A stretch of 64,000 nt of DNA from Escherichia coli (GTDB taxonomy: Bacteria > Pseudomonadota > Gammaproteobacteria > Enterobacterales > Enterobacteriaceae): NCBI RefSeq assembly GCF_003334405.1, contig NZ_QOWM01000006.1, one strand, 5' to 3'. A program made the position numbers. Positions 20,601-23,600 of this stretch are shown here, in pieces; position 1 is the stretch's first letter; each line of letters starts with the position of its first letter.

Positions 20601-23600
20601 TTTGCCACCGCGATGGCGCTGAATGCCGATGCGACTGAAAAAGTAATTTCGGTGCAGGAAATGCACGCACAGATCAAATAATAGCGTGTCATGGCAGATA
20701 TTTTTCATCCGCTAATTTGATCGAATAACTAATACGGTTCTCTGATGAGGACCGTTTTTTTTTGCCCATTAAGTAAATCTTTTGGGGAATCGATATTTTT
20801 GATGACATAAGCAGGATTTAGCTCACACTTATCGACGGTGAAGTTGCATACTATCGATATATCCACAATTTTAATATGGCCTTGTTTAATTGCTTCAAAA
20901 CGAGTCATAGCCAGACTTTTAATTTGTGAAACTGGAGTTCGTATGTGTGAAGGATATGTTGAAAAACCACTCTACTTGTTAATCGCCGAATGGATGATGG
21001 CTGAAAATCGGTGGGTGATAGCAAGAGAGATCTCTATTCATTTCGATATTGAACACAGCAAGGCGGTTAATACCCTGACTTATATTCTGTCGGAAGTCAC
21101 AGAAATAAGCTGCGAAGTTAAGATGATCCCTAATAAGCTGGAAGGGCGGGGATGCCAGTGTCAGCGACTGGTTAAAGTGGTCGATATCGATGAACAAATT
21201 TACGCGCGCCTGCGCAATAACAGTCGGGAAAAATTAGTCGGCGTAAGAAAGACACCGCGTATTCCTGCCGTTCCGCTCACGGAACTTAACCGCGAGCAGA
21301 AGTGGCAGATGATGTTGTCAAAGAGTATGCGTCGTTAATGTCATTTCGATGATACCGTGCGACCTGGTCGCCGGATGCGATGCTGGCGCATCTTATCCGG
21401 CTTACGGTTGCTCTCCAGCCGGGTTGGATAAGGCGTTTATGCCGCATCCGACAGCTATCGCCGGATGCGATGCTGGCGCATCTTATCCTGCCTACGGTTG
21501 CTCTCCAGCAGAGTTGGATAAGGCGTTTACGCCGCATCCGGCAAGATCACCGTTTAGGCGTCACATCCGTTGTCCCCTGCAAACGGGGGCGATTTTCCTC
21601 CATTTGCCTCAACGGCTGCGTTTCATGTAACGATGCATGATAGCGCCCGACAAGATCCTGATACTCTTTGGTATTCAACCGTTTCCAGTGTAACTCGTCG
21701 TCACTAACACTGCGTACAGCGCGGGCTGGCGTACCCATCAACAACTGGCGTTTCTCGCCGCTAAAGCCCGCTTTGACAAAGCTCATGGCGGCAACAATGC
21801 TCTCTTCGCCAATGACCGCGCCATCCATAATCACGCTGTTCATCCCGACCAATGCATCGCGACCAATCACACAACCATGCAGGATCGCTCCGTGCCCGAT
21901 ATGGCCGTTTTCCCCAACAATGGTGTCAGTGTCGCAGTAGCCATGCATAATGCAGCCATCCTGAATATTGGCTCCCGCTTGCACGATCAACCGCCCGTAG
22001 TCACCACGCAGTGAGGCGAGTGGGCCGATGTAGACACCGGCTCCCACAATCACATCGCCAATCAAGACGGCACTGGGATGGACAAACGCCGTCGGGTGAA
22101 CCACCGGAATTAACCCCTCAAAGGCGTAATAGCTCACGGTTGTTAACGTCCTTTCCACACCGGATCGCGCTTCTCGGCAAACGCCAGCGGCCCTTCAATG
22201 GCATCCTCCGAATGCAGAACCGACGGATAGTGTTTCAACACGCCGCTGCGAATATAGCGATACGCTTCTTCTACCGGCATTTCGCTGGTGGTGCGGTAGA
22301 TCTCTTTCAGCGCCGCAATCGCCAGCGGAGCGCTGTTAACCAGCTGCTGCGCCAGTTCGCGGGCGTTATCCATCAGTTCCGCCTGGCTAACCACGCGGTT
22401 GACTATCCCCCAACGCAGCGCCTCTTCTGCGCCCATTCGTCTGCCGGTCATCACCATTTCATTGACGATGGCAGGCGGCAGGATCTTCGGCAGACGCAGC
22501 ACACCGCCGCTGTCAGGAACGATGCCCAGTTTGGCTTCCGGCAGGGCGAAGCTGGCGTTATCGGCACAAACAATAAAATCTGCCGCCAGCGCCAGTTCGA
22601 AACCGCCGCCAAAGGCGTAGCCGTTCACAGCTGCGATAACTGGTTTGTCGAGATTGAAAATTTCGGTTAATCCCGCAAAACCACCCGGGCCAAAGTCAGC
22701 ATCCGGTGCTTCGCCTTCTGCTGCCGCTTTTAAATCCCAGCCCGCGGAAAAGAATTTCTCTCCGGCACCGGTAATAATGGCGACACGTAATTGCGGATCG
22801 TCACGGAAATTTAGAAATACTTCGCCCATTTCAAAGCTGGTTTTTGCATCAATAGCATTCGCTTTTGGGCGATCAAGGGTAATTTCCAGAATTGATCCAT
22901 TGCGGGTCAGATGTAATGATTCACTCATTCCTTTTCTCCATTTTTGCTTTTTCAGGGACGACAACATTCCTGCAAAAAATGCATATTGTTTTAGAGCGTG
23001 ATTATTAGCTGGCAGGGTAGTTCCCTGCCGTTTCATTTATTTCAGATTCTTTCTAATTATTTTCCCCGAGCAATTACGTGGCAGATCTTTTCTGATCTCC
23101 AGATAAGAGGGCACTTTAAATTTCGCCATATTTTGTTCGCAGAAGCGAAAAAATTCCTCTTCGCTCAATGTTTCACCTTCATTCAGCACCACAAATGCTT
23201 TGATGGCTTCATCGCGAATCGAATCTTTAATACCCACAACCACGATGTCCTGAATTTTCGGATGGGTGGCGATGATATTTTCCAGCTCCACGCAGGAGAC
23301 ATTCTCGCCACCGCGTTTGATCATATTGCAGCGGCGATCGACGAAATAAAAAAAGCCTTCTTCGTCGCGGTATCCGGTATCGCCGGTATGCAGCCAGCCA
23401 TCAGCTTCCAGCACTTTCGCAGTGGCTTTCGGGTTGAGAAAATACTCTTTGAAGATGGTTTTCCCTGGTACGCCTTTAATACAGATTTCACCGATCTCAC
23501 CTGCCGGGAGCGGGCAATTGTGATCGTCGCGGATCTCCGCTTCGTAGCAAAACCCCGCTCGACCAATCGACGGCCAGCGTCGTTTATCGCCAGGGCGATC

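Follow-up and report, generated by a model that had tools for sequence, protein, structure and literature searches.

The question raised by this locus is what the duplicated sequences filling two of its intergenic spacers are, and whether they act on the genes beside them. The window, by which we mean the whole 64,000-nucleotide stretch of Escherichia coli DNA analyzed here (contig NZ_QOWM01000006.1 of assembly GCF_003334405.1), carries one tandem array between caiF and caiE (the cai array, 21368-21545) and another between araD and araA (the ara array, 53347-53532). An initial annotation had described both as ordinary bacterial interspersed mosaic elements (BIMEs), each with two copies of a pair of repetitive extragenic palindromes (REPs). 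Both features are indeed BIMEs, i.e., alternately oriented REP hairpins amplified in tandem, and we consider it very likely that they combine this identity with a role at the RNA level. The araD-araA array is a canonical BIME-2; the caiF-caiE array fits best among the atypical BIMEs and has partly decayed. REP and BIME elements have been described since the 1980s and the variation of tandem BIME number among strains is stated in the literature; both arrays are already known, and nothing in them is new as such.

Two tandem arrays of inverted REP pairs

The two arrays carry the highest Tandem Repeats Finder scores across the window, 311 for cai (21368-21540; period 90, 1.9 copies, 93% matches) and 327 for ara (53347-53527; period 85, 2.1 copies, 94% matches). 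A repeat search agrees, giving two copies of 86 nt with 93% identity at a spacing of 90 for the former and two copies of 85 nt with 95% identity at a spacing of 85 for the latter. The initial annotation was thus right in placing two REP-pair copies in each spacer, and its coordinates were good to a few bases. The unit length of about 85 bp that it gave for both is that of the ara array but not of the cai array (90 bp), and its description of the copies as near-identical is looser at cai, where they differ at 8 of 86 positions. Every unit, at cai and ara alike, is an inverted pair of REP hairpins, and both arrays lie entirely between annotated coding sequences, as befits extragenic REPs. The cai array occupies the 208-bp spacer between the convergent 3' ends of caiF (+ strand, stop codon 21336-21338) and caiE (− strand, stop codon 21547-21549). 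The ara array occupies the 199-bp intercistronic spacer between two adjoining − strand cistrons of the araBAD operon, araD (ATG at 53333) and araA (stop codon 53533-53535). The window does not come from K-12; relative to the chicken isolate CM2010-0578/1 it has three base differences over 21000-45999.

REPs were recognized as imperfect palindromes of 30-40 nt with a head GCC(G/T)GATG and a tail CTTATC(C/A)GGC. All eight REPs of the two arrays conform in motif and hairpin, with a degenerate foot (CCAAC) in cai REPs 1b and 2b, and each predicted hairpin has one unpaired position per side between its lower and upper stem, the mid-stem mismatch or bulge by which REPs are known. A scan for motif plus hairpin found six REP loci in the window. 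The head motif GCCKGATGCG, with at most one mismatch, has 35 matches, against 14 ± 3.9 in shuffled sequences, and none of 100 shuffles reaches 35. Because of this enrichment, and because hundreds to thousands of independent genomes carry these arrays as well, a chance origin is excluded. In the median genome, queries containing the spacers match 5 and 15 places, as multi-copy elements do. The identity as BIMEs therefore stands, since the hairpins match the REP reference and are not unique to their locus, both of which were tested.

The reference sequences Y (GCCGGATGCGGCGTAAACGCCTTATCCGGC-CTAC) and Z2 (GCCTGATGCGACGCTTGCGCGTCTTATCAGGC-CTAC) were derived from REP325 (yjdM-yjdN, MG1655), an array of 12 alternating Z2/Y units (Harris et al., 2026); the label z2 is used here for likeness to this Z2. 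Binding and cleavage by TnpA_REP, the REP-associated tyrosine transposase (RAYT), require a GTAG tag 5' of the palindrome foot (PMC3333891). This tag (CTAC on the other strand) is intact in all four ara REPs and in one of the four cai REPs. The MG1655 RefSeq record lists no repeat_region features for either spacer.

The araD-araA array is a canonical BIME-2

The ara array is built as two repeats of y REP, 13-nt linker, z2 REP and 7-nt linker, followed by a vestigial y REP; on the + strand the linkers read AAAATCGCAGCGT after the y REP and GTTGAAT after the z2 REP. Its araD-proximal unit 1 (53347-53431) and unit 2 (53432-53516) are both 85 bp long. Each opens with a short-loop variant of the y REP on the − strand (53348-53376 and 53433-53461, by motif and hairpin), a 25-nt palindrome plus CTAC that combines a y foot with a short top and lies 7 edits from Y. 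By hairpin and edit distance, each continues with a z2 REP bearing GTAG on the + strand, 1 edit from the REP325 Z2 in unit 1 (53390-53425) and 3 edits in unit 2 (53475-53510), where CCAGAT in the foot makes for a weaker hairpin (−16.8 kcal/mol). The vestigial y REP (53517-53532, − strand) has collapsed to head and tail without the middle (TACCGGATGCGGCTAC), and its CTAC abuts the araA stop codon. At the other end, in araBAD mRNA, the y REP at 53348-53376 finishes 14 nt before the araD ATG, beside the ribosome-binding site AAGGAG (53338-53343).

A BIME-2 is defined by y and z2 REPs that lie in inverse orientation, spaced by short linkers and repeated in tandem (PMC3333891). The ara array belongs to this class since its y/z2 alternation, short linkers, intact tags and tandem units match that definition; the units are well conserved within the locus and vary in number among strains. 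BIME-2 descriptions also name linker motifs, S between a REP and its inverse partner and s, l or r at the flanks; the ara linkers are short, of 13 and 7 nt. The inverse y/z2 arrangement is present at ara and missing at cai, so that the label of ordinary BIME applies fully to the former and is slightly generous for the latter, a REP-pair array of atypical and degenerate make-up. The araD-araA locus is itself a published substrate, as the MG1655 araD-A BIME is cleaved and recombined by TnpA_REP in vitro (Ton-Hoang et al., 2012, PMC3333891; oligonucleotides B315/B316). A literature search specific to REPs at ara found only this study.

An atypical and partly decayed BIME lies between caiF and caiE

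Each cai unit comprises two REPs joined by a 17-nt linker: a long one, whose foot is of y type and whose upper stem and loop are z2-like, and a y REP with a degenerate foot. The caiF-proximal unit 1 (21368-21457, 90 bp) starts with REP 1a (21370-21405, − strand; foot GCCGGATG), in which the tag is degenerate, the + strand tail reading TTAC in place of CTAC. REP 1a lies 6 edits from Z2 and 9 from Y and folds as RNA at −21.9/−20.8 kcal/mol; the long REP is separated from Z2 by two compensatory pair changes. Its partner, REP 1b (21419-21452, + strand), is of y type, 7 edits from Y, has GTTGG for GCCGG in the foot, lacks GTAG and folds at −13.5/−11.4 kcal/mol. In the caiE-proximal unit 2 (21458-21545), REP 2a (21460-21495, − strand) is of the same type as 1a with CTAC intact, and REP 2b (21509-21542, + strand), again y-type by motif and hairpin, lacks GTAG. 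Both REPs of a cai unit thus carry a foot of the GCCGGATG type, whereas z-type iREPs (REPs in inverse orientation) are expected to bear TGCC|TGAT (PMC3333891).

One change is specific to the window. At 21489, G is replaced by T, which alters the foot of REP 2a from CCGGC to CCTGC and lowers the predicted stability of its hairpin from about −21.9 to −15.3 kcal/mol. None of the 766 genomes with the cai junction has this change, nor do the nearest relatives, which leaves a private mutation or a base-call error as its explanation. The duplication itself is old: its copies differ at 8 of 86 positions, and the one next to caiE all but equals the single unit of O157, from which, as from unit 2 of E. 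coli C, it is 1 nt away.

The same combination of REP types as in the cai unit recurs elsewhere in the window. At 12353-12438, probably in the lspA-fkpB spacer to judge from K-12 coordinates, lies a well-preserved single BIME in which a canonical y REP is paired with a long REP whose foot is of y type and whose top is z2-like, both with GTAG/CTAC intact.

Unit number varies among strains

Allele counts rest on flank-only queries, from whose full-length hits 59 per locus were sampled at even spacing, and junction-spanning queries were run against the whole collection of 5,426 complete E. coli genomes. In the ara sample, 24 genomes have three units, 12 have two, six have one, and in 17 a single unit is accompanied by a BoxC-like insert of 54-57 nt, next to the ribosome-binding site of araD. 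At cai, two units are present in 10 of the 59 genomes, one unit in 28 and a K-12-type remnant in 20; in the last genome a REP is interrupted by an approximately 97-nt remnant of the IS1397 left end. The unit-to-unit junction of cai was found in 765 of the 5,426 genomes, including E. coli B REL606, whose cai spacer equals that of the window save for one base. The ara junction was found at 80% coverage or more in at least 2,857 genomes; this is a minimum, as O157 genomes with two units align over only 67% of the query. In MG1655 the ara spacer is 284 bp long and contains three units; the cai spacer measures 85 bp and retains one degenerate REP and half of another. That copy number varies among strains, as the initial annotation had held, is therefore borne out, with one to three units at ara and from none (the remnant) to two at cai. 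Both lines of verification which it had named were followed, with the ara z2 REPs 1-3 edits from the reference and the copy number polymorphic.

Several comparisons point to copy-number change at ara as recurrent. The ara array of the window is that of MG1655 without the middle unit: its unit 1 has the sequence of MG1655 unit 1, and its unit 2 that of MG1655 unit 3, which is also the sequence of the single unit in O104:H4. Two units are likewise found in O157, with the z2 variants in the order opposite to that of the window, and in O157 as in Nissle the copies of one strain have strain-specific substitutions in common. K-12 GM4792 (NZ_CP011343.2, 66117-67217) has two ara units against three in MG1655, a difference of exactly one 85-bp unit which reflects either a contraction on a laboratory timescale or an assembly collapse. 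Throughout, the ara REP stems and tags are intact in every strain examined. The number of units may shift because the direct repeats of 85-90 bp recombine unequally or slip in replication, because TnpA_REP cleaves them and transfers strands, or for both reasons. The mostly untagged cai array is probably not a TnpA_REP substrate, given the requirement of this enzyme for a GTAG tag that only one of the four cai REPs has kept.

Other repeat or mobile DNA has entered these spacers as well. In O104:H4 (401-467 of the extracted locus), the 54-57-nt insert is a GC-rich palindrome (GAGAGGTCGTTTCCCCTCACCCCGGCCCTCTCCCCAAAGGGGCGAGGGGGAAAACAA) placed between the single ara unit and the araD ribosome-binding site, which we take to resemble a BoxC-type repeat. 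It occurs at full length in 1,534 of the 5,426 genomes, in one to three megablast places per genome. The 969-bp ara class, considered as two units minus 31 bp, was rejected in that form, as dissection resolved it into one unit plus this insert. In the strain named 'capsule spontaneous mutant 1' (approximately 420-520 of the extracted caiF-caiE locus), the fragment of about 97 nt splits the first cai REP within its loop. This fragment is identical to the IS1397 left end and the start of orfA (annotated elsewhere as an IS3-like IS1397 family transposase) and is the remnant of a REP-targeting insertion sequence.

RNA structure and signals in the spacers

The RNAs of the whole spacers, folded for the transcribed strands, reach −99, −95.5 and −95.7 kcal/mol; their z-scores lie between −4.4 and −4.9, and none of 200 shuffled sequences is as stable. 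Taken singly, the REP hairpins have energies of −11 to −22 kcal/mol. Pairings between REPs of different units in the minimum free energy folds of whole spacers were not taken as meaningful, because co-transcriptional folding favors local hairpins. Both loci match the Rfam family naRNA4 (RF02564) above its gathering score of 59.5, with 64.3 bits at 21422-21492 (+ strand) and 60.2 bits at 53393-53458 (− strand), each match spanning the head-to-head REP pair across the junction of units 1 and 2. RF02564, built from REP325, is the sole REP-derived family in Rfam, and membership in it is a matter of sequence and structure only.

Scans of the two spacers found no promoter-like site and no Rho-independent terminator (GC-rich hairpin followed by a T-run), and the IHF consensus WATCAANNNNTTR has no match on either strand of either spacer. 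BIME-1 (RIP/RIB), in which a single pair of z1 and y REPs flanks a long L linker with an IHF site, was ruled out for both arrays, which are tandem, have linkers of 7-17 nt and contain no IHF consensus. The signal nearest to the cai spacer is a terminator-like hairpin with T-run at 21574-21599 (+ strand; CCCCTGCAAACGGGGG CGATTTTCCT) inside the 3' end of the caiE coding sequence, which is conserved in MG1655. As a consensus match it could be the intrinsic terminator of caiF, in which case the whole cai BIME would fall in the 3' untranslated region of caiF.

Function and alternative explanations

The role that we infer for both arrays operates on transcripts. A transcribed REP would fold into a stable hairpin and impede 3'-to-5' exonucleases, and REP hairpins may in addition bring about partial, largely Rho-dependent termination. 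The model for both is REP325, a partial Rho-dependent terminator and stabilizer of the upstream transcript whose deletion alters operon expression and growth, and across the genome tandem gene pairs with a REP show upstream-biased expression while convergent pairs with a REP show elevated expression. Applied to the two loci, the ara array would favor araB and araA over araD, and the cai array would buffer the 3' ends of the caiF and caiTABCDE transcripts. Translation of the upstream gene is lowered by REPs that lie closer than 16 nt to a stop codon, according to Liang et al. (2015) as summarized in PMC12306157. The foot of REP 2b on the − strand begins 4 nt past the caiE stop codon and would place it in this translation-lowering class.

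A bolder extension can be conceived, which we put forward tentatively and think rather improbable. In this extension the ara unit number (one to three, or one plus the BoxC-like insert) would be a heritable, quickly mutable dial of the ratio of AraB/AraA to AraD across lineages, set by additive hairpin-dependent termination and decay blocking, and the cai states would likewise tune the output of caiF and caiE. Loss of AraD is toxic (PMC7269641); such a dial, if real, would set the exposure to toxic L-ribulose-5-phosphate differently by lineage.

Several points weigh against an RNA-level role, and most of them argue at the same time for a serious rival, namely that the arrays are neutral, selfish or relic DNA, leftovers of REP/BIME proliferation that grow and shrink by slippage without any measurable influence on the expression of ara or cai. 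For ara and cai the regulatory role is carried over from other REPs, for which the literature reports a large variance from locus to locus and no general effect on mRNA half-life. The first full REP past the araA stop codon lies 22 nt downstream, outside the class controlling translation. The cai array is dispensable in practice, since 20 of the 59 sampled genomes, MG1655 among them, have no more than an 85-bp remnant. It has lost three of its four GTAG tags, and the private substitution at 21489 costs one hairpin about 6 kcal/mol, a pattern that fits neutral decay. The wide polymorphism in presence and copy number, with no obvious constraint, and the IS1397 remnant and BoxC-like insert in the same spacers point in this direction too. 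We regard the neutral explanation as a real possibility but less likely than not, and it has most force for cai. The genome-wide expression biases of tandem and convergent gene pairs with REPs and the consequences of deleting REP325 speak against it, as do the well-conserved stems and tags of the ara REPs. It is also compatible with the RNA-level role, as an element of selfish origin may have a regulatory effect. An action on DNA or the nucleoid is less probable and, in our view, unlikely: the arrays would serve as BIME-2 gyrase sites, bind Pol I or HU, or be sources of naRNA4-like RNAs organizing the chromosome. The naRNA4 scores of both loci and the BIME-2 architecture of ara are in line with it, and BIME-2 repeats are gyrase cleavage targets in vivo (Espeli and Boccard, 1997, as described in citing papers); the absence of an IHF consensus from both spacers is not.

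Two further explanations concern the reality of what is read from the sequence. Tandem repeats classically collapse or expand in assembly, and the GM4792 and MG1655 pair could be an instance of such an error. That the duplications of the window are artefacts of this kind is nonetheless essentially refuted, as 765 independent complete genomes share the two-unit cai junction and at least 2,857 the ara junction, REL606 differs from the window by a single base in the cai spacer, and units of 85-90 bp are short compared with read lengths. Scarcely more credible is that the open reading frames (ORFs) crossing the repeats, 83, 93 and 86 aa long at cai and 73, 58 and 51 at ara (both strands included), are genuine small protein genes. 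Two of them have been deposited verbatim as proteins. The exact sequence of the 93-aa ORF at 21349-21630 (+ strand) appears as a 'hypothetical protein' on about 50 contigs, and that of the 58-aa ORF at 53360-53536 (+ strand), which lies wholly in the ara BIME and antisense to araBAD, on about 30 contigs (a cluster of 35 members), mostly with the functional name 'ribonucleoside diphosphate reductase 1 subunit beta'. Such an enzyme subunit is impossible for a REP-derived peptide of 58 residues antisense to araBAD, and the name is a propagated mis-annotation. The ORFs arise on both strands and in several frames purely from repetition of the unit, and where a strain has one unit or a remnant they are shorter or missing. 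Neither spacer has a promoter-like site, and RefSeq/PGAP annotates no gene in either of them in any of the genomes fetched. A 'hypothetical protein' listed at two cai matches was considered as an annotated spurious ORF and rejected, as in U14A it is located upstream of caiF. The initial claim that these repeats generate spurious ORFs was hence correct, and annotation hygiene is where the practical value lies: the arrays yield deposited ORFs, one falsely named as an enzyme, and naRNA4 matches at such arrays should not be read as genes.

Other repeats in the window

Further REP loci are located at 25917-25998 (a pair of y and z2 REPs), 37094-37130 (a single long REP with a y foot and the tail CTTC) and 58834-58918 (a pair of z-type and y REPs). 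At the yabP/yabQ junction, tandem repeats with a period of 15 nt extend over 45807-45918 (7.5 copies, TGCTACCCTGGACGG) and 45968-46013 (3.1 copies, TTGCTACTAAAGAAG); the annotation of the nearest relative marks yabP as frameshifted.

Comparison with known REP systems

The arrays share features with several described systems. Like naRNA4, they have at each unit junction a head-to-head REP pair that scores above the gathering threshold, yet the match reflects shared REP sequence and structure and not a demonstrated naRNA, and alleles with a single unit have no head-to-head pair at all; the nucleoid function proposed for naRNA4 is itself contested in the literature. The REPIN and RAYT doublets of the Pseudomonas model resemble them in having two inverted REPs with a spacer and a REP-associated tyrosine transposase in the genome. 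The feet of y and z2 REPs can pair over 15 nt with 93% complementarity, but the two REP sequences differ in E. coli, so that a doublet does not form a long perfect hairpin, and amplification is local and in tandem instead of dispersed.

The cai array stands outside the BIME-2 family, as neither of its REPs has a foot other than the y type, and is closest to the atypical BIMEs, chimeras mixing REP and linker types that likewise occur in tandem: it is a tandem REP-pair unit fitting neither BIME-1 nor BIME-2, with a sister element at 12353-12438. Whereas published chimeras combine y, z1 and z2, the long cai REP is a hybrid of y foot and z2 top, and the copies are degenerate.

The ara array, in contrast, has the inverse y and z2 REPs, GTAG/CTAC tags, short linkers, conserved tandem units of strain-variable number and location between tandem cistrons that characterize BIME-2 and REP325. 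It differs from REP325 in its shorter unit (85 against 100 bp) and linkers (13 and 7 nt against 17 and 17 nt), in the short-loop form of its y REP (a 25-nt palindrome with GCGCTTTGC as its top) and in having two units instead of six. Natural alleles with one, two and three units in otherwise near-identical backgrounds make this locus well suited to testing REPs as local terminators and stabilizers. The nearest counterpart is the araD-araA BIME of MG1655 at the same locus, which the two units of the window match base for base (units 1 and 3 of MG1655), the window differing by the missing middle unit and hence by a spacer of 199 instead of 284 bp.

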